A stretch of 64,000 bases of DNA from Candidatus Saccharimonadia bacterium (GCA_963717365.1 OY970327.1:459599-523598), one strand, 5' to 3'. Positions 4,775 to 56,957 are shown, numbered from the stretch's first letter. A program made the numbers and translations. The notes: generated from the letters alone by a model not told the origin.

Positions 4775-5056
4775 ATGCCAGTTAGTATTCATGAACAAAT
4801 TGGTACGCGTACAGTCAGTCAAATGGATCAGTTGGCAATGCAACTTGGCGTTGAACTGGAAAATATGCCAGCCTTCGCAGCCGGCAGGAATACTGCTGGC
4901 TGGGTATTCGCAGATCAAGATGTACCCGACGACTTATCCGAGGTAATAACAGTCATCAGAGAACAGGCTACCAGCACTCCATTTGGCGGCCATGTTGATC
5001 GACCAGAGTTTATCTTAGGCTCGGTCATGGCCGCTTTTGCAATCAGAACTCGATAG
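4775..5056 (+). CDS. Hypothetical protein (93 aa)
   Basis: ORF with a good SD. Overlapping ORFs in other frames (4652-4918 minus, 4662-4946 plus) have odd composition and no start signals. Confidence 0.55.
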   Translation: MPVSIHEQIGTRTVSQMDQLAMQLGVELENMPAFAAGRNTAGWVFADQDVPDDLSEVITVIREQATSTPFGGHVDRPEFILGSVMAAFAIRTR

Positions 5057-7696: not shown

Positions 7697-7942
7697 ATGC
7701 GGGAAGCATATAAAGTTGACATATTAAGCCCTGAAGAATGTGCAGAGTTGGTCCTTATTGAGCCGGAGGCAGTATATATCCATATGGCTAATGACAAAGT
7801 TCCCTATATTGATCGTCAAGACGGTACATACGCAATACCATTGGGAGGCTTTCTGGGTTCTTTAGAAGGTCTTCTTGATTTAAAACCTCAGTTAATTGAG
7901 CAAAATGAACGTATGCTAGCGCTCAACCTAGAAGAAGATTAG
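7697..7942 (+). CDS. Small HTH protein, excisionase/MerR-like (HTH_17-type) (tentative)
   Basis: 81 aa with SD TAAGGAG upstream. LSPEECAELVLIEPEAVYIHMANDKVPYIDRQDGTYAIPL resembles the Xis/AlpA-type pattern (LT.eEaA.lLgvs..tvyrl...g.lP..r.g....ip). Confidence 0.4.
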   Translation: MREAYKVDILSPEECAELVLIEPEAVYIHMANDKVPYIDRQDGTYAIPLGGFLGSLEGLLDLKPQLIEQNERMLALNLEED

Positions 7943-8013: not shown

Positions 8014-8682
8014 ATGGCAGTTGGATTGGTGCGCTCTGAACTTCCTGATTCTTGGTTTGATCTGTATCGGCATTTTGCCAACAATGTTAGTGGTATGCCG
8101 GTAAAGAAACTTGCTCGTAAGGATGCTTTACTCTTTACTGATACTATTCCTCCCGATGGATTCGGTACAGGCTTTTTTTATAATACACCCGCTAGTGTCA
8201 GCCAATTAGTGGTTGCTCTGGCGGTAGCACCCAATCCAGAGATTCGAGAGTTAGCCAGTAACAGTATGCTGTTTCCCAGCTTAGCTAGCTTAGCGAAAGC
8301 AATGCGTGTCAAAAAAGTACTAAAAAATTTCAAGCTATTAGATTTGGGTTGCGGCATAGTGCCTGGTTTTGCCATGGTTGCTAAAACCCTGGGGGCTGAA
8401 GTACATACTGTAGATGGCGAATCGCTTGGATCAGGCCAAGCAAAATTAGTAGATACGCACACTGTTGTTGATCTATGTTCCCCGGAAGCTATTCCAGCCA
8501 TCAAAGCAAATACAGGCGGTCAGTTTGATTTTATTAGCGAATGTATAATTGGCTCAGTCCCAGGGCATCCTAGCTGGAAAACTCCTCTGAAAGATGATCT
8601 GTATCTCTACGGTGAACATCTATTAAAGCCTAGTGGCTTTCAACATCATGCAGGCTATGTTCACGTACTACAAAAAACGTGA
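8014..8682 (+). CDS. Class-I SAM-dependent methyltransferase-like protein (tentative)
   Basis: 222 aa. LLDLGCGIVPGFAMVAKTLGAEVHTVD resembles motif I (LDLGCGxG) plus an acidic post-I residue. Confidence 0.4.
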   Translation: MAVGLVRSELPDSWFDLYRHFANNVSGMPVKKLARKDALLFTDTIPPDGFGTGFFYNTPASVSQLVVALAVAPNPEIRELASNSMLFPSLASLAKAMRVKKVLKNFKLLDLGCGIVPGFAMVAKTLGAEVHTVDGESLGSGQAKLVDTHTVVDLCSPEAIPAIKANTGGQFDFISECIIGSVPGHPSWKTPLKDDLYLYGEHLLKPSGFQHHAGYVHVLQKT

Positions 8683-45986: not shown

Positions 45987-48830
45987 ATGGTATTAAACTC
46001 AAAGTTTAAAAAAACAAAGACAAAGCCAGCACAAAAGCTCAGTCGTTTTCAAAATCTTAGCTTATTCTTTTTTAGAAGACCACGAAAAACCGCCATTATA
46101 TGGGTAGTTGTCGCTCTATTTGGAGTTGCAAGCTATGCCACGCTCCTTAAACGAGAGGGCTTTCCTTCTATTGAAACTCCGTTCGCACTTTCGCAAGGGG
46201 CATACCTAGTCAACGATCCTGCTAAAGTCGACAACGATGTTGCTCGACCGCTGAGCGAATTCATATTAAAGCAAGACGGTGTTAAAACCGTACAAACACA
46301 GAGCTTTAACAATTTTTATGTCGCTCAGGTTGCCTATGATGAACAAGTTAACGCCGAAGTTCGCAGCCCTGAAATTCAAAAAGCCATTGATGAGCAGAAT
46401 ATACTTCCAGAACAGGCTACTGGAAAATTAGAAGCATTCAAGTTTGGCTTTACCGAACGTGGTGATGAACTTGTTATATCTTTTTACTCAAAAGATTCCT
46501 CGGTTAGTACAACGGAACTGACAGCAAAAGCTACTGATGCGGCAAATTATCTTAAATCTCAAAATATGCCGCTGGTAGAAAATGTTTCGATTATCAACCC
46601 CTATGAAACAGCAATTAACCCTAATACTGGTGTAAGCGAACTTGCTCAAAAAAGTTTTGATCGTTTTGGCAAACGAGAAGGCGATGCCAATAACTTTTAC
46701 CACTCTGTTGTGATTGGCGTAAACGCTAAAGACAAGGTCGATCAGTTGGAACTTGATAAGCAGGTTCAGGCAGCAATCAATAATCTTAGTAATGAATCAC
46801 AGTTTACCGATTACCGCGCCGAGATCAGTGCCAGCACTGCGCCGTCAATTAATCTTCAGATAAGCGAGTTACAAACCACCTTACTGGAAGGGTTACTGGC
46901 AGTACTTATCATTGGTTCGATTATAATCGCGGTGCGCGCTTCTCTGATAACAGTTATTTCAATGGTGACAGTCATCGCAATCGTCAATGGATTACTGTTT
47001 ATATTTGGCTATAGTCTCAATACCATTACCTTATTCGGATTAGTTTTAGGTCTCTCGCTGATTGTTGATGACACGATTATTATGGTGGAGGCGATTGATG
47101 CTCAGCGGCGAAAGCGAAAAGATCCTGATGAAATAATTAAAGTTGCTACCGGTAAAGTAGGCCAGGCCATGATCGCAGCTACCTCTACGGCAGCTCTGAG
47201 TTTTGCTCCGCTTTTATTTGTTGGCGGTATTTTAGGTAGCTTTATCCGAGCGATACCAATTACTATCATCTCGGCATTGCTAGTCAGCTTACTGGTTGCG
47301 TTAGTATTTATACCTTTATTTGCGCGCTATATTTTACTGGGTAAACATCAACTTGGCAAAGACAATGTTAACGAGCCTGCAGCTGCCGTCGAGGCCCGCG
47401 TGGCACGTTTTTTATCTACACCAATGCTATGGGCTAAACATTCCAAGAAAAAATTATTAGCAGTTGGCTTAGTTGCCGTGTTCATTGGTTTTAGCTTTAT
47501 TGCTGCCGGCGGATATCTATTTAAAGAAGTTAAGTTCAGTATTTTCCCCGTCGACAAAGACAGCAACCAACTAAGCGTAACTTTGACCTTCGCACCTGGT
47601 ACTGGAACGGCTGATGCAGAAAAAATAATCGATGAAGCTAACAAAATAGTTTCCGAACGCCTTGGCAGCAACTTGATTAAGGCATCTTACTACGGCTCAG
47701 GTGACATCCAGAATGCTATTTTAGTGGTTGATATTGTCGACTATAAAGAACGAGACATTAAGGCTCCTGAACTAGTCGACCAGTTAAACAACCAGTTCAA
47801 AGAATTTCCGGGTGCCCAAGTTAAAACCGGCCAAATTGGTGCAGGACCCCCAGAATCTGCTTTTGCTGCCCGAGTTGATTCCAGCCAGAATCGCCAAGCA
47901 GCCACCCAGCTTGCAACCGATATAACAAAATTCCTAGAGTCTACCGAACTTAAGCGCCCCAATAGTACAGTAGCTAAAATTGAAACAGTGACTGCGCCAG
48001 ACCCAAATATATACACCCGTGATGATAATAAAACCTATGTCCAAGCTGGCGCTCAGTTTACTGACGACGATACCAGCGCTCTAGTTACGATTGCCCAAGA
48101 TGCCGTTAAGAAAGAGTTTCCGAAGGAACGAATTGCTTCATACGGCTTAAATGAAGATGCCTTAAGCTTTGACTTTGGCCAAGAAACTGAGAACCAGGAT
48201 AGCTTTAAAACACTAGCGCTGGCATTTCCATTTCTACTCATAGCAATTTACTTACTATTGGCATTACAGTTCAAGAGCCTGCTGCAGCCGCTACTCATTT
48301 TCATGGCGATTCCATTCAGTCTATTTGGTATTACGCTCGGCCTATATCTTACCGACAATCCGTTTAGTTTCTTTGCCATGCTCGGTTTCTTCGCCCTGAT
48401 TGGATTGAGTATTAAAAATACCATCCTGCTAACAGATTATGCTAATCAGGCCCGTAGGGCCGGCATGAACGCTGTAGACGCTGCCCACGAAGCACTAGCT
48501 GAACGATTCCGCCCGCTGATCGCAACAAGTTTAACTGCAGTCTTTTCACTCATTCCATTAGCTCTCACCAGTCCGTTCTGGGAAGGCTTAGCGGTTGTGC
48601 TAATCTTTGGTCTGCTTTCCAGTACCTTCCTAGTCGTTACTGTATTTCCGTACTACTATTTGGGAGCTGAGTACCTGCGCAGTCACATTAATCGCTGGAC
48701 CGGATTGTCTTGGGTGGTTATGACCGTTAGCTTAATTGCCATACTAGTAACTATTAAACCACTGTTAGCAATAATCGCTCCATTCATTACGGCCATCATG
48801 ATAATGATCTATAAAAAGCAGGGCTGGTAA
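45987..48830 (+). CDS. RND-superfamily transporter permease (AcrB/MMPL-like)
   Basis: 947 aa with two blocks of multiple TM helices separated by large soluble loops, which is the typical RND topology. No adaptor or outer-membrane partner is seen nearby. Confidence 0.6.
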   Translation: MVLNSKFKKTKTKPAQKLSRFQNLSLFFFRRPRKTAIIWVVVALFGVASYATLLKREGFPSIETPFALSQGAYLVNDPAKVDNDVARPLSEFILKQDGVKTVQTQSFNNFYVAQVAYDEQVNAEVRSPEIQKAIDEQNILPEQATGKLEAFKFGFTERGDELVISFYSKDSSVSTTELTAKATDAANYLKSQNMPLVENVSIINPYETAINPNTGVSELAQKSFDRFGKREGDANNFYHSVVIGVNAKDKVDQLELDKQVQAAINNLSNESQFTDYRAEISASTAPSINLQISELQTTLLEGLLAVLIIGSIIIAVRASLITVISMVTVIAIVNGLLFIFGYSLNTITLFGLVLGLSLIVDDTIIMVEAIDAQRRKRKDPDEIIKVATGKVGQAMIAATSTAALSFAPLLFVGGILGSFIRAIPITIISALLVSLLVALVFIPLFARYILLGKHQLGKDNVNEPAAAVEARVARFLSTPMLWAKHSKKKLLAVGLVAVFIGFSFIAAGGYLFKEVKFSIFPVDKDSNQLSVTLTFAPGTGTADAEKIIDEANKIVSERLGSNLIKASYYGSGDIQNAILVVDIVDYKERDIKAPELVDQLNNQFKEFPGAQVKTGQIGAGPPESAFAARVDSSQNRQAATQLATDITKFLESTELKRPNSTVAKIETVTAPDPNIYTRDDNKTYVQAGAQFTDDDTSALVTIAQDAVKKEFPKERIASYGLNEDALSFDFGQETENQDSFKTLALAFPFLLIAIYLLLALQFKSLLQPLLIFMAIPFSLFGITLGLYLTDNPFSFFAMLGFFALIGLSIKNTILLTDYANQARRAGMNAVDAAHEALAERFRPLIATSLTAVFSLIPLALTSPFWEGLAVVLIFGLLSSTFLVVTVFPYYYLGAEYLRSHINRWTGLSWVVMTVSLIAILVTIKPLLAIIAPFITAIMIMIYKKQGW

Positions 48831-50614: not shown

Positions 50615-51504
50615 TTTTTAGCTCTCCGCGGACGCTTTTTGGTTAATCCTTTTGTCGGGAGCTGCGGTTTTTTCTTTTTGGCAGGCCCTCGCCTGCGTGG
50701 TTTGTCGTCACCATGCTTTGGAATCGCACTGATCATTGCCGACACTCCGGCCAGCTCCTCATCATCAATATCTTTGGGAACAAAAACTACCTTTTCGGCA
50801 ACACCTTTTGCTACTTCGCCAACCTTGGTCTTTTCATCTCGAACAATTGCTCCGTCGTACATGTACAACACTCGAGTCGCATATCGAGTCAATTCCGGAT
50901 TATGAGTTACCATTAAAATTGTATTACCCATGCGATGAACTTCATTTAGCAGCTCCATAACCAAGCGGGAAGAAGCGCTGTCGAGATTACCGGTAGGTTC
51001 GTCGGCAATCAAAATCTTAGGTTCGTTAATAAGCGCCCGCGCAATCGTGACACGTTGCACTTGGCCGCCGCTCAGTTGATGGGGGAGGTAATAAGCGCGG
51101 TTACTCAGTCCAACCCGTTCTAACATCGTGTGGGCCTGTTTTAGACGACGTCCGGTACGCTTACCTTTGTAGGTAAGTGGTAACGCAACGTTTTCTAGTG
51201 CAGTTAATTTTGGAATAAGACTTGATGACTGAAATACAAAACCAATCTTATCTCGACGAGTCTTAGCCCGGCCATTCGGCCTGAGTCCTTCTACCGAACG
51301 ACCGTCAAGCCGGAAAACACCGTGTGTCGGCCGATCCAGCATACCAATGATATTTAACAGGGAGGATTTCCCCGATCCGCTCGGTCCCATTATTGCTACA
51401 AATTCACCTTTTTCCACGCTAACGCTTACTTCTTCCAACGCAATGGTTGTTGCGTCCCCGAAGCCATACAGTTTACTAACGTCTTTTAACTCAATAATTG
51501 GCAT
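50611..51504 (-). CDS. ABC transporter ATP-binding protein (MacB/LolD-like) with a basic C-terminal tail
   Basis: Walker A is GPSGSGKSS, the signature is LSGGQVQRV and Walker B is ILIADEPT. About 70 extra C-terminal residues end in PRRRGPAKKKKPQLPTKGLTKKRPRRAKK. Confidence 0.85.
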   Translation of the reverse strand: MPIIELKDVSKLYGFGDATTIALEEVSVSVEKGEFVAIMGPSGSGKSSLLNIIGMLDRPTHGVFRLDGRSVEGLRPNGRAKTRRDKIGFVFQSSSLIPKLTALENVALPLTYKGKRTGRRLKQAHTMLERVGLSNRAYYLPHQLSGGQVQRVTIARALINEPKILIADEPTGNLDSASSRLVMELLNEVHRMGNTILMVTHNPELTRYATRVLYMYDGAIVRDEKTKVGEVAKGVAEKVVFVPKDIDDEELAGVSAMISAIPKHGDDKPRRRGPAKKKKPQLPTKGLTKKRPRRAKK

Positions 51505-51630
51505 TACGTCTATAATACGCTGTAATTAGTGTCTATGACAGGGGTTTTGTAGTAAAATTTAACCTGTAGACCGTGGTTTTTAATAATTTGTTAATATTTT
51601 TATGTTATTCACGAAATCGAATGCCTAGAA

Positions 51631-51683
51631 AAGTACTATACTTCAACTTCATTAAAATTTAATGAAAAACAGATATAGTAATA
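51631..51683. repeat. Palindrome family copy B (degenerate)
   Basis: AAGTACTATACTTCAACTTCATTAAAATTTAATGAAAAACAGATATAGTAATA matches the reverse complement of 49291-49343 at most positions by eye. Confidence 0.6.
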
Positions 51684-51728
51684 GAATAGGGTATGCTTTG
51701 TTTAACTACAGAGTCGTTCAAATACTAT

Positions 51729-51818
51729 GGAGGGGTCGCCTAGTGGCCTATGGCGCCGCCTTGGAAAGGCGGTTTGGGAGCAATCTCATCGAGGGTTCGA
51801 ATCCCTCTCCCTCCGCCA
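51729..51818 (+). tRNA. tRNA-Ser (anticodon GGA), CCA encoded
   Basis: Hand-folded cloverleaf. The acceptor is GGAGGGG/TCCCTCC, the anticodon stem-loop is CCGCC-TTGGAAA-GGCGG, the variable arm is long, the T-arm is GAGGG-TTCGAAT-CCCTC, and the discriminator G is followed by CCA. Confidence 0.85.
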
Positions 51819-51990
51819 AAAATATAGTTCTTTTTCGACCCGTTCCCTTGAAGTGTCTACTAATAAAGGAGTTAGTTGGTTTTATTTAGCCGGAAATGTT
51901 ATGGACGGACTATATAGTCCGGAATTCCTTGCAAGAGACGGGCTATTTTGCTTTTTCCACCAGACAATAATATAAAAAATTTTGCAAATA

Positions 51991-52142
51991 TTGACAATAT
52001 ATGTTATTGTTTTATGTATTATGATTTCAACCATCATGAAGCAGTATCAACTACTCCTCGGCCTTAATGGGCTGTGCTTCATCATGGTTGAAGCCTAGAC
52101 ACTATTTGTCTCCAGTACAGCCCCACTAAATAGGCTTCAACC
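51991..52142 (+). promoter_or_regulatory. Promoter plus structured leader with mutually exclusive pairings
   Basis: TTGACA at 51991-51996. An 18-bp stem forms between 52026-52043 and 52075-52092 (1 mismatch), and a second stem pairs GAAGCCTA (52090-52097) with TAGGCTTC (52131-52138). GGTTGAAGCC (52087-52096) is also perfectly complementary to GGCTTCAACC (52133-52142). Confidence 0.45.
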
Positions 52143-52180
52143 GAAGTCTATTTTTAATTTGTACATAAGGAGAAAACACC

Positions 52181-52768
52181 ATGATAGGAAATGAAGTAAT
52201 AGCAAGCAACCGAGACAGCGCTGAATACCATCGATTGGAAGCCATGAGAAAGCCCGACGATGCTATGGTTCGGGTAATGGCTAAAAACGTCGATTGGGAC
52301 GGCACACCACTGCCGAAGCCAGAAGAGACAAAGGGTTGGGTCACGGCCTCCGAAATCGAAAACGGGGTCTACACGGCTCATGAAGACCAGACCTATCCAT
52401 ATGAGAAAACAAGCATAACGTACGCTGATGTAACGGCCGGTAATGTGCCATGGCTAGGCGTTATACATATAGTGCTGTTTGAAGAAAAGGCACGCATGAA
52501 AGAAGACATTGCCCGTGAAGCTTGTATTGCCGTCATGAGGGGGAGGTCGCAGATGGCGATCCATTGGGCGACTAAGGTGGCTGCCGGTAAAGACCACGAA
52601 GCTTACGCAGTTAGAGCGCGGCAAGAATTGTCTGAGATACAAACTGGAGTGGGTCTGGAGCAAGTTGCAGAACTGGTTTCGCGGCCATTCCCCGATCCCA
52701 CGGACTTTGCGTTTGCGGCAAATGCCGTGATGCAAGCCCCTCACCCTAAAGTTGAAAAATATCGGTAA
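52181..52768 (+). CDS. Hypothetical protein (195 aa)
   Basis: ORF with SD TAAGGAG. No domain recognised. Confidence 0.55.
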   Translation: MIGNEVIASNRDSAEYHRLEAMRKPDDAMVRVMAKNVDWDGTPLPKPEETKGWVTASEIENGVYTAHEDQTYPYEKTSITYADVTAGNVPWLGVIHIVLFEEKARMKEDIAREACIAVMRGRSQMAIHWATKVAAGKDHEAYAVRARQELSEIQTGVGLEQVAELVSRPFPDPTDFAFAANAVMQAPHPKVEKYR

Positions 52769-52854
52769 ATAAATCATGCGCTGCTAGCAAAGCGAATTGG
52801 TTTTGCTAGTGGCGCAAAAATAATACATGAAGGAGATTTTGAAAGGAAGAAAAT

Positions 52855-54441
52855 ATGACGAACCCAACAATAGAAACCATACCGAGTAACCCTAGTACGT
52901 TTGATGCGCACTGGGCGGCCAATGACATGCGTGAACGCCCGGCATACTACGACGCTGTTCGTGATGCCGTACACACGCCATTTGACCCAGAGACACCGCC
53001 GGCGCTGGTCGACGTTACCGATGTCTCACTGCGCGACGGCTTGCAACAGCCTACAAAAGAAACGGGCATTACAGAATATACCCCGGAAATCACGGCTATC
53101 ATCGTTGCTGAGCGCACCGAAATTTTTGACGCCATTGTGAGTATGGGCATTAAGCGCATCGAAATTGGCCACCTGGGCAATGATGTAATCGATCAAGCTT
53201 TTGGTAGCCACCTGGTCGGCCATATTGCTCATATGCGGCAAACTGATCCGCGCTACGAAGATGTGGAATTGCAGATACTGTTTGGCAGTCAGCAAAAACA
53301 GATAGACAAAGGCACCGACGTAGTAGTCGAAGCCTACCAAGAGCACTACCCAGACACCTGGCAAGAGGAAATGAGCAAGGGTGTAGTGGTTCACGTCTAC
53401 GATCGTGTTGATGAAGTAGTCACGGCTATGGCTTCCGTGCCCTATACCATAGAAGACTCGGCTCGGCGCGTTACCGAAGCCACAGCAATTGCTATAGCTA
53501 AGGGCTTTACGAAGTTCTCAATATCCGGCGAATTGGCTACTGGCGCTAGTCCCAGGAAGGTGACGCAGTTCTTTCGCGCCATCAATGCAACCATGTTTGA
53601 TCAGGGTGCCAAAGAAATTAACGACAACCTGGCCAATACCTATGGCTATTCTAGTCATAAGCGCTGGAACACTGCTACCTTAACTGCATTCAATATAATG
53701 GTTACGCATGGTTTTGAGCCAGGTAGCGTGACCACGAGCATACATGCTCACAACGATACTGGCGATGCTGTAGCTGGTTCAAAGCGGGCCTACGTCGCCG
53801 GGTGCAAAAGAGTAGAAGGCACTATGCTTGGTACTGGCGAACGTTATGGCAATACAGCAAATATTGATGTGGTAGCTGGTGTTGCTGGAGACGGCCGGCA
53901 CGAAGACATTGCCGAAACCAGAGACTACCAGGACGATTGGATGGTCGATCTGGCCGGGGAGGTTTCGGTTCGCCGGACTGTTTACTTTCGCCAAGATTTG
54001 GTCGATAGCTTACACAACTGGTACTCGAAATGTGAAAGGATTGCGCAGATATTGGGTGAGCACGCGCTGTTCCGCTTTTACCACACGGCAGTTGGTAATC
54101 CCTACGCCCATTACAATGGCTCGGGTCCGCACGACCAGATTATGGCTGAAGCCATCATGGATCCAGTTGGCCGGCCGGGCGACGCCAGCTATGCTTGGAA
54201 GCTGATCGTCAACAACATCATGGGCAGGCCTGGCACCAAGGAGATTGCCATTGGCGATCCCGAGGCAGTCGATTCCGTGACTGTCGGCAACCATGCTGGC
54301 GGTCGCAAAACAGCCATGATTAAAAATGGTGAATTAAAACGGCCGTCACAGGAAATCATCGATCAGGCGAGCCGAGACTTTGACGAACGGAAAGCTCGAA
54401 TCCTTGGCCGCATGGCAACGGGAGTAACAATCCATGCGTAG
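52855..54441 (+). CDS. DRE-TIM metallolyase family enzyme (2-isopropylmalate/homocitrate-synthase-like)
   Basis: 528 aa. DVSLRDGLQ aligns with DTTLRDGEQ, HAHNDTGDAVA with HxHNDxGxAxA, and GTMLGTGERYGNT with GTxxGxGERxGN. SD AAGGAG lies upstream. Confidence 0.65.
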   Translation: MTNPTIETIPSNPSTFDAHWAANDMRERPAYYDAVRDAVHTPFDPETPPALVDVTDVSLRDGLQQPTKETGITEYTPEITAIIVAERTEIFDAIVSMGIKRIEIGHLGNDVIDQAFGSHLVGHIAHMRQTDPRYEDVELQILFGSQQKQIDKGTDVVVEAYQEHYPDTWQEEMSKGVVVHVYDRVDEVVTAMASVPYTIEDSARRVTEATAIAIAKGFTKFSISGELATGASPRKVTQFFRAINATMFDQGAKEINDNLANTYGYSSHKRWNTATLTAFNIMVTHGFEPGSVTTSIHAHNDTGDAVAGSKRAYVAGCKRVEGTMLGTGERYGNTANIDVVAGVAGDGRHEDIAETRDYQDDWMVDLAGEVSVRRTVYFRQDLVDSLHNWYSKCERIAQILGEHALFRFYHTAVGNPYAHYNGSGPHDQIMAEAIMDPVGRPGDASYAWKLIVNNIMGRPGTKEIAIGDPEAVDSVTVGNHAGGRKTAMIKNGELKRPSQEIIDQASRDFDERKARILGRMATGVTIHA

Positions 54442-54505
54442 TCAAGATGTTCAAGACAATGCCCAGTGCCAAACCGTGGCAAAAAATTGCACGAGTAGCG
54501 CAAAG

Positions 54506-54550
54506 AATGAGACACGGCTGTACATTGTGTGCTGTGTCTCATTTTCCTCT
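54506..54550 (+). terminator. Terminator-like hairpin
   Basis: AATGAGACAC (54506-54515) pairs with GTGTCTCATT (54534-54543), followed by a T-rich TTCCTCTT. Confidence 0.5.
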
Positions 54551-54649
54551 TGAAACTGCTAACATGTGAGACAGGAACAGGTTCCAGACCCGTGTGTTCC
54601 GCCATATTAAGAAGGAGCGTGGTCGCGCGATATTCCTCTACCGATTTAA

Positions 54650-55042
54650 TTACTCCTTTGAAATAAGCATTTCAAATAGTATTTTATAAGGATCTTTTTT
54701 ATCAAGCTTAGCCTGAATTGAAAGATTTTCTGTTCCATCAGGAACATCCAAGCCATTCTTACAAGCGGCAACTAAACCATTAAACATTGCTTCGCCAAAT
54801 AATTGCATCGCTTCGTAAGAATCTCTGACTAAACCAATTGCTACCATAGGCAGACAGTCAATATTTGCATCAATACTGTCTTCACCGGTAAATAATGTTT
54901 TGTTTATATCCGTAGTAAGCAGATATTTAGTCATACCCGCACTAACAATGTTGCACTTATACTCCATGATGCTTTCCTTAAAATCAGGACTAAATATTTC
55001 ATCCAGTGGCGGCGCTTCATAGTTCTTAAAGGAATGTGTCAT
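54650..55042 (-). CDS. Hypothetical protein (130 aa)
   Basis: ORF only. Confidence 0.45.
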   Translation of the reverse strand: MTHSFKNYEAPPLDEIFSPDFKESIMEYKCNIVSAGMTKYLLTTDINKTLFTGEDSIDANIDCLPMVAIGLVRDSYEAMQLFGEAMFNGLVAACKNGLDVPDGTENLSIQAKLDKKDPYKILFEMLISKE

Positions 55043-55057
55043 ATATTGCCAGTACTG

Positions 55058-55765
55058 TTAACTAATCTTGGTGCCGATATCTTCACCTGATATTACACGG
55101 GCGATGGCACCTTCGTTCATTGGATTGAATATAACTAGTTTCATGCCTTGCTCCATGGCAAGACCCATAGCGGCTTTATCCATCACTTTAATTTCAGCAT
55201 TTTCAACAGCTTGCTGGAATTGTAGTGAATCATACAAAATAGCGTCGTCATGCTTATGGGGATCTTTATCATAAACACCATTAACTTTAGTAGCTTTTAG
55301 AACAATCTCGCAGTCCATCTCGAGCGCCAGCGAAACCGCGGCCGTATCAGTAGTCAAGTAGGGTCGACCCAGACCGCCGCCGGCGATAACTACGCGGCCT
55401 TTTTCCAAATGCTTGTTGGCAAGCCGGTAAACAAAAGGTTCGGCCACTTGTTGTGCGAATATATTAGTTAAACAGCGAGTCTTAACACCTTGATCTTCAA
55501 AGATATCTGTTAAAGCCAATGCGTTAATCATAGTGCCAAGCATACCCATGTGATCGCCAGTTACACGACGAATACCATGACCAGCTACCTGGGCCCCTCG
55601 GACAAAATTGCCCCCACCCACCATAATTACAACTTCGGTACCACTTTCAGATGTTTTTTTAACTTCTCGAGCAAACCAGGACGCAAGTTCCGGATCGATA
55701 CCATGTTCATATTTTCCCGCCAGCATTTCACCGGACAGCTTCAGGAGGACTCGTTTGTATGCCAT
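55058..55765 (-). CDS. pyrH: UMP kinase
   Basis: KRVLLKLSGE and GGGNFVRG motifs. I chose the start at the internal Met (MAYKRVLLKLSGE) rather than the track start at 55813. Confidence 0.85.
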   Translation of the reverse strand: MAYKRVLLKLSGEMLAGKYEHGIDPELASWFAREVKKTSESGTEVVIMVGGGNFVRGAQVAGHGIRRVTGDHMGMLGTMINALALTDIFEDQGVKTRCLTNIFAQQVAEPFVYRLANKHLEKGRVVIAGGGLGRPYLTTDTAAVSLALEMDCEIVLKATKVNGVYDKDPHKHDDAILYDSLQFQQAVENAEIKVMDKAAMGLAMEQGMKLVIFNPMNEGAIARVISGEDIGTKIS

Positions 55766-56647: not shown

Positions 56648-56776
56648 TAAATAAAATATGATATAATAGTTGAGTTATGATTAAGCGTTATTTTGGATTC
56701 TTTTGGTTTACAGCCCCCAAATTGGCGGTTAGTCTGGTGCGTATTAAAAAGTAAGTTTCAAAAGCAGCAGAATGAT

Positions 56777-56805
56777 AACCGCCAAGATGGCGGTTTTTTA
56801 TTTTT
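56777..56805 (+). terminator. Rho-independent terminator
   Basis: AACCGCC (56777-56783) pairs with GGCGGTT (56789-56795) around a 5-nt loop, followed by TTTTTATTTTTTT. Confidence 0.7.
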
Positions 56806-56957
56806 TTGATTTTACAGAAAGGAAAAATAGTAAGATGATAACAGGACCAGAAATAATCCCTCAGCTGCACCAAATTTCCGACCATGAACGGCGCGGCAAC
56901 GCCGAGATAATCGCCGTTCTGGGAATCGCACGTAGCGTAGTAGATCAAAGGCCAAAA

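Follow-up and report, generated by a model that had tools for sequence, protein, structure and literature searches.

A predicted leucine-responsive leader-peptide attenuator, one of a widespread Saccharimonadales family, upstream of a divergent LeuA-like enzyme gene beside tRNA-Ser

Analysis of a 64,000-nt stretch of DNA from a Candidatus Saccharimonadia bacterium (GCA_963717365.1 OY970327.1:459599-523598; hereafter the window, along whose given strand, 5' to 3', all coordinates are counted) has drawn attention to a two-gene locus adjacent to a tRNA-Ser gene, in which a short structured leader precedes an open reading frame designated ORF195 and a gene encoding a 528-aa enzyme of the DRE-TIM type. 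The region from 51982 to 52155 very probably comprises a promoter and a ribosome-mediated, leader-peptide-dependent transcription attenuator that senses leucine and controls the operon composed of ORF195 and the enzyme gene. Judging from the sequence, the sensor of this attenuator is a leucine-rich leader peptide of 25 codons and not a riboswitch, and the leader is predicted to be one copy of a previously undescribed attenuator family that is widespread in Saccharibacteria and, as far as sampled, confined to Saccharimonadales.

A preliminary description of the locus had reported the tRNA-Ser gene, a leader stem with an alternative pairing, both open reading frames and the DRE-TIM motifs, and all of these are present, with coordinate errors of no more than 1 nt. 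Specifically, the 18-bp stem formed by 52026-52043 and 52075-52092 (pairing 1:2) was recovered by a repeat finder at 94% complementarity, and the alternative pairing (2:3) is real and longer than claimed, consisting of 12/12 perfect pairs between GGTTGAAGCCTA (52086-52097) and TAGGCTTCAACC (52131-52142); only the position originally assigned to its upstream arm, 52087-52096, was off by one. A third pairing that had been overlooked, that of 52128-52138 with 52143-52153 followed by a T-run, was identified by a terminator scan as terminator-like (3:4). These pairings are mutually entangled, in that 1:2 and 2:3 compete for the overlap of 52075-92 with 52086-97, and the 5' arm of the terminator hairpin is common to the 2:3 pairing (52131-42 overlaps 52128-38). 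The leader can be divided into segments 1 (52026-43), 2 (52075-97), 3 (52128-42) and 4 (52143-53 plus the U-run), with the Leu codons CUA CUC CUC, CUU and CUG situated between segments 1 and 2. The fold of the leader scores z = -4.7 against shuffled sequence, with 0 of 200 shuffles equaling it, and the minimum free energy (MFE) structure of the free, full-length leader combines 1:2, two small hairpins (P1a and H) and the terminator at -44.5 kcal/mol. When a ribosome is placed at the stop codon of the leader open reading frame described below, the RNA left free behind forms, by fold calculation, the terminator only.

Homologous leaders were collected by a pattern scan of GTDB representative genomes, which returned approximately 31 true leaders and 7 chance matches in coding sequence, and by a scan of metagenome contigs; together the two scans yielded at least 60 distinct leaders, 58 of which had enough upstream sequence for the scoring of codons and helices (L-numbers, used below, refer to the compared contigs or loci from other genomes). 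The 7 chance matches (L014, L024, L025, L026, L031, L033, L042) lie within unrelated coding sequences, lack the rest of the leader and were dropped, as were L121 and L133 from the metagenome scan, which are not leader-like. The same leader is found upstream of the enzyme homologues on contigs L001 to L007, and a covariance-model search of the whole window revealed no second copy of the leucine leader.

Each of the pairings recurs across this collection. The upstream arm of helix 1:2 varies in sequence and pairs with segment 2 (the A' region) at a mean of -17.5 kcal/mol, compared with -8.8 kcal/mol for shuffles, reaching p<=0.05 in 51/58 leaders. An additional helix, B:B', formed in the window by 52069-78 and 52114-23, is paired at 10/10 positions in 47/58 leaders and at 9/10 in the other 11/58, through 26 distinct sequence combinations; 97% of its cells are paired, compensatory changes occur at 4/10 pairs (UA:23 vs CG:14), and the pairing lies above all slid controls. 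The covariation that had been proposed as a check on the leader is found in B:B'. A terminator hairpin is present in 58/58 leaders (median -10.6 kcal/mol) and is followed by 5-7 T. A consensus computed with RNAalifold from a MAFFT alignment recovered the antiterminator helix and P1a and was limited to these by hairpin H, which is variable and poorly aligned; helices were therefore scored with anchored custom scripts. L008, a more distant homologue, retains 1:2, 2:3 and 3:4 via compensatory changes, with the antiterminator altered on both arms. Taken together, these data suggest that the switch between terminator and antiterminator formed by the alternative pairings is genuine and conserved.

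A feature of the leader unnoticed in the preliminary description is a mini-ORF that encodes MISTIMKQYQLLLGLNGLCFIMVEA and whose stop codon (TAG, 52096-98) falls within the antiterminator arm. Its regulatory stretch, LLLGLNGL, contains Leu at 5/8 positions. The reading frame is open in 56/56 homologues, compared with 6/56 and 0/56 for the other two frames, and in most homologous leaders an in-frame ATG is situated 21-22 codons before the M of the conserved MVEA. The three core regulatory positions encode Leu in 43-53 of the 58 leaders and vary synonymously among CTC, CTT, CTA, CTG and TTA, while in a minority of leaders they are exchanged for Ile or Val, as in MIIIPIIQGLCF, QIVIIIVLSL and SIIAVIIVLGI. 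CUC is the dominant regulatory codon; among the host genes of the window it is the least frequent codon for Leu, accounting for 10% of all Leu codons. The peptide tail, GLCFxMVEA, is invariant, including at third codon positions (TTC 56/58, GGG 52/58, TGC 52/58), which indicates a constraint at the RNA level; such a constraint is expected of a stretch in which helices B, A' and C are encoded as well. The family thus appears to consist of a constant RNA scaffold, marked by the tail GLCFxMVEA and the stop that follows it, which carries an exchangeable block of Leu or Ile/Val codons.

The manner in which this peptide is expressed also appears to be conserved. In 54 leaders, a TTGNC(A) -35 element and a TGnTATAAA-like -10 element are followed by 7-10 nt and then by ATG, and a Shine-Dalgarno (SD)-like motif precedes 2/54 leader ORFs as against 54/54 downstream genes. 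The proximity of promoter and AUG, together with the lack of an SD motif, suggests that the mRNA from which the mini-ORF is translated is probably leaderless or nearly so. In the window, the sequence TTGACA previously proposed as promoter is indeed present, at 51991-51996, but its role as a -35 element is less likely than that of TTGCAA; the more likely promoter, given the family-wide spacing, is TTGCAA (51982-87) with TGtTATTGT (52002-10), the predicted -10 ending 10 nt ahead of the mini-ORF AUG. A consensus promoter scan listed no promoter on the + strand at the leader.

The strongest argument that the leaders sense tRNA charging through translation is the match between codon type and downstream pathway, for which downstream genes were labelled via tblastn and NCBIfam. 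A LeuA-family gene lies downstream of 29/46 Leu-type leaders versus 0/14 Ile/Val or mixed leaders (Fisher p = 2e-5), the targets comprising a bona fide LeuA (603 bits, cutoff 532), several LeuA-like paralogues and the window-type enzyme. Downstream of one Ile/Val-type leader lies ilvB-ilvN-ridA-ilvA, and others are followed by an M20 deacylase of the ArgE/DapE family. Additional arrangements include a Leu-type leader ahead of ilvA (690 bits), another ahead of ridA-ilvB, and an Ile-type copy, L044b, ahead of a partial LeuA/CimA-like gene.

Based on these pairings and on the placement of the codons, a mechanism can be proposed (Table 1). Transcription would start a few nucleotides before the AUG at 52021, and the mini-ORF would be translated without an SD sequence. 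With no ribosome engaged, segment 1 (52026-43) would pair with segment 2 (52075-92), the terminator (52128-53 plus the U-run) would form, and transcription would end. When leucine is ample, the ribosome would reach the UAG at 52096-98 and, since this codon is located inside segment 2 and the antiterminator arm, would mask that arm (52086-97), so that the terminator again forms. When Leu-tRNA is scarce, the ribosome would instead stall on CUA-CUC-CUC, or on the later CUU and CUG, and block 1:2; 52086-97 would then pair with 52131-42 once the latter is transcribed, sequestering the 5' arm of the terminator. With the terminator pre-empted, RNA polymerase would read through into ORF195 and the enzyme gene. 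Helix B:B' (52069-78 with 52114-23) would be part of the switch, either by stabilizing the terminator-competent fold or by forming a pseudoknot with the antiterminator.

Table 1. Features of the tRNA-Ser locus and its leader (window coordinates).
Feature	Coordinates	Strand	Remarks
tRNA-Ser(GGA)	51729-51818	+	ARAGORN; Rfam tRNA model 52.7 bits; left boundary of the variable segment
Variable segment of ~2.75-2.8 kb (leader, ORF195, DRE-TIM gene)	51819-54610		Missing from syntenic relatives
Probable promoter: -35 TTGCAA 51982-87, 17-nt spacer, extended -10 TGtTATTGT 52002-10	51982-52010	+	Family-wide spacing
Predicted leader-peptide mini-ORF, MISTIMKQYQLLLGLNGLCFIMVEA, 25 codons, stop UAG 52096-98	52021-52098	+	ATG-started frame; conserved in homologues
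Predicted regulatory codon block: CUA CUC CUC 52051-59, CUU 52063-65, CUG 52072-74	52051-52074	+	
Helix P1, predicted 1:2 anti-antiterminator: 52026-43 with 52075-92; small hairpin P1a (52060-64 with 52069-73) inside	52026-52092	+	
Helix B:B': GGGCUGUGCU 52069-78 with AGUACAGCCC 52114-23; hairpin H (52097-52101 with 52107-52111) inside	52069-52123	+	
Predicted 2:3 antiterminator (C:C'): GGUUGAAGCCUA 52086-97 with UAGGCUUCAACC 52131-42	52086-52142	+	Holds the mini-ORF stop codon
Predicted intrinsic terminator 3:4: 52128-38 with 52143-53, U-run to 52155	52128-52155	+	Terminator scan; MFE and centroid folds
ORF195, nearly orphan protein; SD AAGGAG 52167-72	52181-52768	+	
17-bp intercistronic hairpin between ORF195 and enzyme gene; no U-run behind	52777-52816	+	MFE -28.8 kcal/mol, z = -5.9
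528-aa divergent LeuA-family DRE-TIM enzyme	52855-54441	+	Pfam HMGL-like E = 2.4e-22
Right-junction sequences: TCCGCCATAT 54598-607, CGCGATATTCCTCTACC 54626-42	54598-54642		tRNA 3'-end-like matches

Several observations weigh against this attenuation model. The thermodynamics of nested structures show no clear preference for the antiterminator: with a ribosome on the LLL codons and B free, the combination of B:B' and terminator (-29.5 to -32.8 kcal/mol) is more stable than the antiterminator (-23 to -25 kcal/mol), and with B also covered the two folds are about equal (-22.8 vs -21.8 kcal/mol). Read-through would consequently require either kinetic control or a pseudoknot composed of B:B' and C:C', for which the candidate geometry comprises stems of 10 and 12 bp, a constant loop 1 of 7 nt and a loop 3 of 7-17 nt. 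Furthermore, both scans demanded exact matches to the conserved core, and conservation of that core is therefore partly imposed by the way in which the sequences were collected. The strong preference for CUC could partly reflect RNA-level constraint or shared ancestry, and many leaders precede small orphan ORFs only, which is unexpected for a purely biosynthetic regulon.

Two other explanations of the leader have been weighed against these data. The preliminary description had proposed an attenuator or a riboswitch, and the former is supported by the conserved terminator/antiterminator switch. A metabolite-binding riboswitch or a tRNA-binding, T-box-like element, for which the small ORF would be incidental, could account for the conserved alternative structures, the covarying B:B' helix and the possible pseudoknot, features common in riboswitches, and an added ligand could be invoked where the antiterminator is not clearly favoured thermodynamically. 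Such an element is nevertheless extremely improbable: the frame is open in 56/56 homologues, with an AUG at a fixed distance and a stop codon embedded in the antiterminator, the Leu codons vary synonymously, and whether the codon block is of the Leu or the Ile/Val kind follows the downstream pathway. In addition, an Rfam scan of 51000-55200 with cmscan at E<=10, of the kind suggested for the leader at the outset, gave no match in it, and none to a riboswitch, a T-box, RF00512, RF01743 or RF00230; its only matches were the tRNA and two that are non-significant, one on the tRNA and one within the enzyme gene.

Alternatively, the product of the mini-ORF could itself be functional, as a hydrophobic micropeptide (a membrane peptide or a toxin, for example), and the hairpins could terminate or stabilize the short transcript that encodes it, with no sensing of amino acids. 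The hydrophobicity of the peptide, its strongly conserved C-terminal tail and the many family members followed by small orphan ORFs only would suit this explanation, which we nonetheless hold to be very improbable, as conservation of the tail extends to its nucleotides, third positions included, and the tail coincides with three RNA helices, the variable block corresponds exactly to the Leu or Ile/Val run and correlates with downstream leuA or ilv genes, and the stop codon lies within the antiterminator arm.

That leu and ilv genes can be attenuated by leader peptides is textbook knowledge. The enterobacterial leu (RF00512), ilvGMEDA and ilvBN leaders follow the 1:2/2:3/3:4 scheme with consecutive Leu codons, rare ones among them, and their stop codon is placed such that a terminating ribosome masks segment 2; translation of these leaders starts in an SD-dependent manner, and they control complete biosynthetic operons. 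To our knowledge, enterobacterial leaders that serve different amino acids share no homology. The window's leader shares the pairing logic and stop placement of the enterobacterial leu leader, without a cmscan match to it at E<=10. T-box leaders, found at leu and ilv genes in Firmicutes, detect uncharged tRNA themselves, with no ORF required. Both the T-box (RF00230) and the Lactococcus Leu/Phe leader (RF01743) resemble the Saccharimonadales leaders in exerting terminator/antiterminator control of branched-chain genes by tRNA charging, but neither model matches here, and the Saccharimonadales sensor is predicted to be a translated codon run.

The closest analogues are found in Corynebacterium, in which leaderless leader peptides precede leuA (MNRANLLLLRRGGSQA, followed by a stop) and ilvBNC (MTIIRLVVVTARRLP) (PMC5784534, PMC11857589). 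Like the leaders described here, the Corynebacterium leu and ilvB leaders have a short ORF with a run of Leu or Ile/Val, a transcript starting at or beside the AUG with no ribosome-binding site, and anti-antiterminator, antiterminator and terminator hairpins upstream of leuA or ilvB (PMC5784534, PMC11857589). When the peptides alone are compared, no likeness is seen between those quoted for Corynebacterium and those of Saccharimonadales. The latter are longer (25-27 aa) and end in an invariant tail that the RNA scaffold encodes; Leu and Ile/Val versions are built on one homologous scaffold; an extra covarying helix, B:B', is present; and the targets, in a host of the phylum Patescibacteria, include divergent DRE-TIM enzymes that stand alone, a deacylase of the M20 family and numerous orphan ORFs. 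Our search of the literature found nothing relevant on attenuation, leader peptides, leuA or isopropylmalate synthase in Saccharibacteria or the Candidate Phyla Radiation (CPR). What sets the family apart, as predicted from its members, is that a single scaffold accommodates exchangeable codon blocks, that it has the additional helix, and that orphan ORFs and solitary LeuA paralogues are among its cargo.

Leaders followed by orphan ORFs only are often located just upstream of rplJ-rplL or convergent with nrd genes. At a site convergent with nrdA-nrdR, some genomes carry the leader together with the window-type enzyme, and others (L011, L015, L027, L029, L143, L157 and others) carry the leader with small orphan ORFs of 70-270 aa only; the differing genes behind the leader at this one site suggest that the cargo is exchangeable. 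L002 has two tandem leaders in one operon, the first (1223-1377) preceding a 171-aa orphan gene and the second (1826-1978) preceding a hexapeptide-repeat protein and a window-type enzyme. Two leader copies each are also found in L044, L090 and L106, of which L044 and L090 combine one Leu-type with one Ile- or Ile/Val-type copy. Among the leaders listed, the one closest to the window's is that of L047 (2665-2808, - strand; MISTIMKQQNLLLSLRGLCFTMVEA, followed by a stop), which drives an unknown 438-aa protein and a class-III aminotransferase-like protein; the metagenome-assembled genome to which L047 belongs has a second leader ahead of a long LeuA-like gene (L017).

The 528-aa enzyme downstream of the window's leader carries the three DRE-TIM motifs attributed to it (LRDGLQ, HAHND and GERYGN) and matches the Pfam HMGL-like family (PF00682; 80 bits against a 29-bit cutoff). 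Residues R60, D61, H297, H299, D301, E329, R330, G332 and N333 are invariant in 47 homologues and align to the motifs of 2-isopropylmalate synthase (IPMS), and comparison of the enzyme's profile with IPMS structures gives E = 9e-27 to 1e-21 with the catalytic motifs aligned. In a Foldseek search with an AlphaFold2 (AF2) model of high predicted local distance difference test (pLDDT) score (93.4), the best matches were MAM synthase, M. tuberculosis LeuA, IPMS and homocitrate synthase (HCS), ahead of citramalate synthase, DmpG-type aldolases and HMG-CoA lyase, with identities of 13-20% overall and of 15-19% to solved LeuA-family structures. The top NCBIfam matches are LeuA models, the best reaching 65.3 bits against a cutoff of 455 (NF002991). 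Pfam, NCBIfam, profile and structure matches thus agree with the assignment of the enzyme as a divergent LeuA-family member of the DRE-TIM group.

That divergence is considerable. The enzyme scores below every curated NCBIfam cutoff (>=229 bits; LeuA models 455-748), falling far short of those for LeuA, CimA, HCS and DmpG alike, and it lacks a LeuA_dimer regulatory domain, there being no Pfam match past residue 352 and the C-terminal 170 residues of the AF2 model being almost all-helical. These two properties, sub-cutoff scores and the missing LeuA_dimer domain, suggest that the enzyme represents a deep, Saccharibacteria-specific clade of the LeuA family. Of 66 homologues, all those named to organism come from metagenome-assembled genomes of Saccharimonadales or Patescibacteria. 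With the branch of LeuA, MAM, homocitrate and citramalate synthases the enzyme shares the TIM barrel, the RDG, HxH and GERxGN motifs and the ensuing SG-H-Q segment of subdomain I; it differs in its clade being found in Saccharimonadales and Patescibacteria only, in its lack of LeuA_dimer and in its sub-cutoff scores. The most distant homologue (32% identity, L009) has a different leader (4835-4985), with a short ORF encoding MQKVNLSLELPKNVI and ending in a stop, a strong terminator, AACCTCCCAGACGGGAGGTTTTTT, and the sequence GTCTGGG as a possible antiterminator; this leader may represent an attenuator family of its own.

From its motifs and modelled fold, the enzyme is probably a Claisen-condensing 2-oxoacid:acyl-CoA synthase. 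The absence of an allosteric domain implies that any leucine control would have to be transcriptional, and its predicted induction by leucine starvation would link the enzyme to leucine supply. No leu, ilv, lys or pyruvate-pathway gene lies within ~15 kb on each side. The lack of other leucine, lysine or pyruvate-pathway genes nearby had been remarked, and this isolation had suggested a specialised role rather than branched-chain amino acid synthesis. That suggestion is weakened by the finding that bona fide leuA, ilvA and ilvBN lie behind leaders of the same family; since the Leu block also tracks LeuA-family genes, expression would be tied to leucine supply whatever the exact reaction. Whether the enzyme is simply an IPMS isozyme of the canonical leucine pathway, the remaining genes of which would be encoded elsewhere in the genome, has to be considered in this light. 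The same Leu-type leader precedes bona fide LeuA in other Saccharimonadales, the R-D, HxH and GERxGN motifs and an SGPHDQ segment are invariant in the enzyme family, and LeuA and MAM synthase are the best structural matches. Set against this are scores of <=65 bits where LeuA models require 455-748, the 15-19% identity to solved LeuA-family structures, the missing LeuA_dimer domain with an all-alpha C-terminus in its place, ANTYG instead of PDTVG, and the lack of adjoining leuBCD or ilvE both here and beside the homologues examined. On balance, the isozyme is a reasonable possibility, though one that we consider somewhat doubtful.

ORF195, described beforehand as an orphan, is nearly so. Neither it nor a neighbouring 130-aa ORF has a match in Pfam, NCBIfam, PHROGs or PDB, and library searches of ORF195 together with an exhaustive HMMER search against 1.8 billion representative proteins yielded, besides itself, one real relative, a 115-aa protein with 41% identity over 94 aa. 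A match to a 3443-aa protein, in which 15 repeats align to 37 residues, was regarded as spurious. A single-sequence AF2 model of ORF195 reached a pLDDT of 40 and was not used for fold search. The hairpin between ORF195 and the enzyme gene (52777-52816) could be a processing, stability or partial-termination element.

The locus as a whole occupies a variable slot beside tRNA-Ser, the approximate edges of which lie at 51819-51840 on the left and 54570-54610 on the right. The host is a Saccharimonadales, its Tgt protein sharing 79% identity with that of a named metagenome-assembled genome. An empty tRNA-Ser site, which the preliminary description had proposed to look for in relatives, is seen in two syntenic relatives. 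Neither of the outcomes named there as refuting is observed: the alternative structures of the leader are conserved, and the locus is not syntenic in all relatives. In L169, with 77-80% nucleotide identity on the right flank, ~166 nt separate the tRNA-Ser 3' end from a 134-aa gene and pyrH, and in L170, with ~68-75% nucleotide identity and syntenic blocks on both sides, 492 nt separate tRNA-Ser from pyrH. The tRNA itself is strictly conserved, window positions 51726-51818 being identical to L170 at 93/93 positions and 51791-51818 to L169 at 28/28. The composition of the locus is foreign: GC content and GC content at third codon positions (GC3) are 0.517 and 0.528 in the two island genes versus 0.459 and 0.427 in host genes, and Leu codon usage differs as well.

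Insertion of the cassette next to tRNA-Ser, rather than its loss from the relatives, is the probable history, and the cassette was probably acquired horizontally. The nearest homologues of the enzyme (78% identity) lie in unrelated contexts, and in L001 a serine-recombinase gene is found ~3.6 kb upstream of the homologous cassette. At the right junction, TCCGCCATAT (54598-607) is a 10-nt match to the tRNA 3' end and the next bases of the L169 empty site, and CGCGATATTCCTCTACC (54626-42) is a degenerate copy of a tRNA 3'-end repeat that is exact in L170. There, an 18-nt direct repeat of the tRNA 3' end occurs at 7848-7865 and 8019-8036, with starts 171 nt apart. These repeats were recognized post hoc and are suggestive only. 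The alternative, that the cassette is ancestral and was deleted in the relatives, draws upon the lack of an integrase or recombinase in the segment, which holds ORF195 and the enzyme gene only, upon the short or degenerate direct repeat in the window, and upon the comparison being with two relatives of ~70-80% nucleotide identity; moreover, tRNA adjacency is not a trait of the leader family among the homologous leaders checked. Deletion is nonetheless unlikely in view of the composition and Leu codon usage of the two genes, unlike those of host genes, the unrelated contexts of the nearest enzyme homologues, one of them near a serine-recombinase gene, and the exact 18-nt repeat of L170, which suggests a site that serves both integration and excision. 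No similarity between the island's non-coding flanks and other loci was found.

Other observations at and near the slot may be recorded here. The 3' flank of tRNA-Ser in the relatives contains a segment of ~170 nt that closes with a tRNA 3'-end repeat (L170; reverse complement 29-194 in L169) and looks like an att-type scar or landing pad. A perfect 16-nt palindrome, CGGACTATATAGTCCG, is located at 51906-51921, in the gap between tRNA and leader promoter within the variable segment, and might be an operator or a recombination site. Just 3' of the enzyme gene, at 54487-54541, are two hairpins, one a terminator-like site on the minus strand (54503-54487 plus a T-run) and the other, on the plus strand, GAGACAC...GTGTCTC with ATTTTCC behind it; the convergent transcription units probably end at these hairpins. 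Further upstream, a gene for a 947-aa RND transporter of the AcrB family (45987-48830, +) lies between tgt and rlmH and is missing from L170, in which rlmH directly follows tgt; it is a second insertion or deletion difference in the neighbourhood.

The window also contains a second leader, unrelated in sequence, ahead of a DAHP synthase gene (56660-56807, +), which is predicted to be an attenuator of the same logic as the leucine leader. A TATAAT at 56662-67 lies 9 nt before a mini-ORF (56677-56754) encoding the aromatic-rich peptide MIKRYFGFFWFTAPKLAVSLVRIKK and ending in a stop, a terminator is located at 56777-56807, and UUGGCGGUU (56722-30) is a candidate antiterminator arm. In L169 the peptide is kept, bar one Ala-to-Thr substitution, with several synonymous changes, and the terminator, different in sequence, still forms a hairpin.

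A broader interpretation, which we put forward as speculative and, taken jointly, rather unlikely, is that Saccharibacteria possess a lineage-wide, 'programmable' amino-acid-starvation switch, in which the Leu/Ile/Val block would be swapped within one leaderless scaffold, the antiterminator may be a B:B'/C:C' pseudoknot and the cargo would be interchangeable and partly mobile. That cargo would comprise solitary, deep-branching LeuA-like enzymes that do not make isopropylmalate, a deacylase and many orphan small proteins that may act on the host, and the cassette in the window would represent a starvation-response module gained horizontally by an episymbiont that presumably cannot make leucine.

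Patescibacteria, or CPR bacteria, are commonly portrayed as metabolically minimal, with little regulation. The at least 60 predicted attenuators reading the charging of Leu or Ile/Val tRNA suggest that Saccharimonadales monitor branched-chain amino acid supply in the classical way. They would define, by sequence, a regulon of LeuA paralogues, IlvA, IlvBN, an M20-family deacylase and many orphan ORFs, which offers hints at starvation behaviour, and they provide a handle on the Saccharibacteria-specific LeuA-like enzyme. The family is missing from Rfam, to which it could be added. The mechanism itself being textbook, the weight of the finding lies less in RNA biology than in the physiology of the CPR and the annotation of its genomes.

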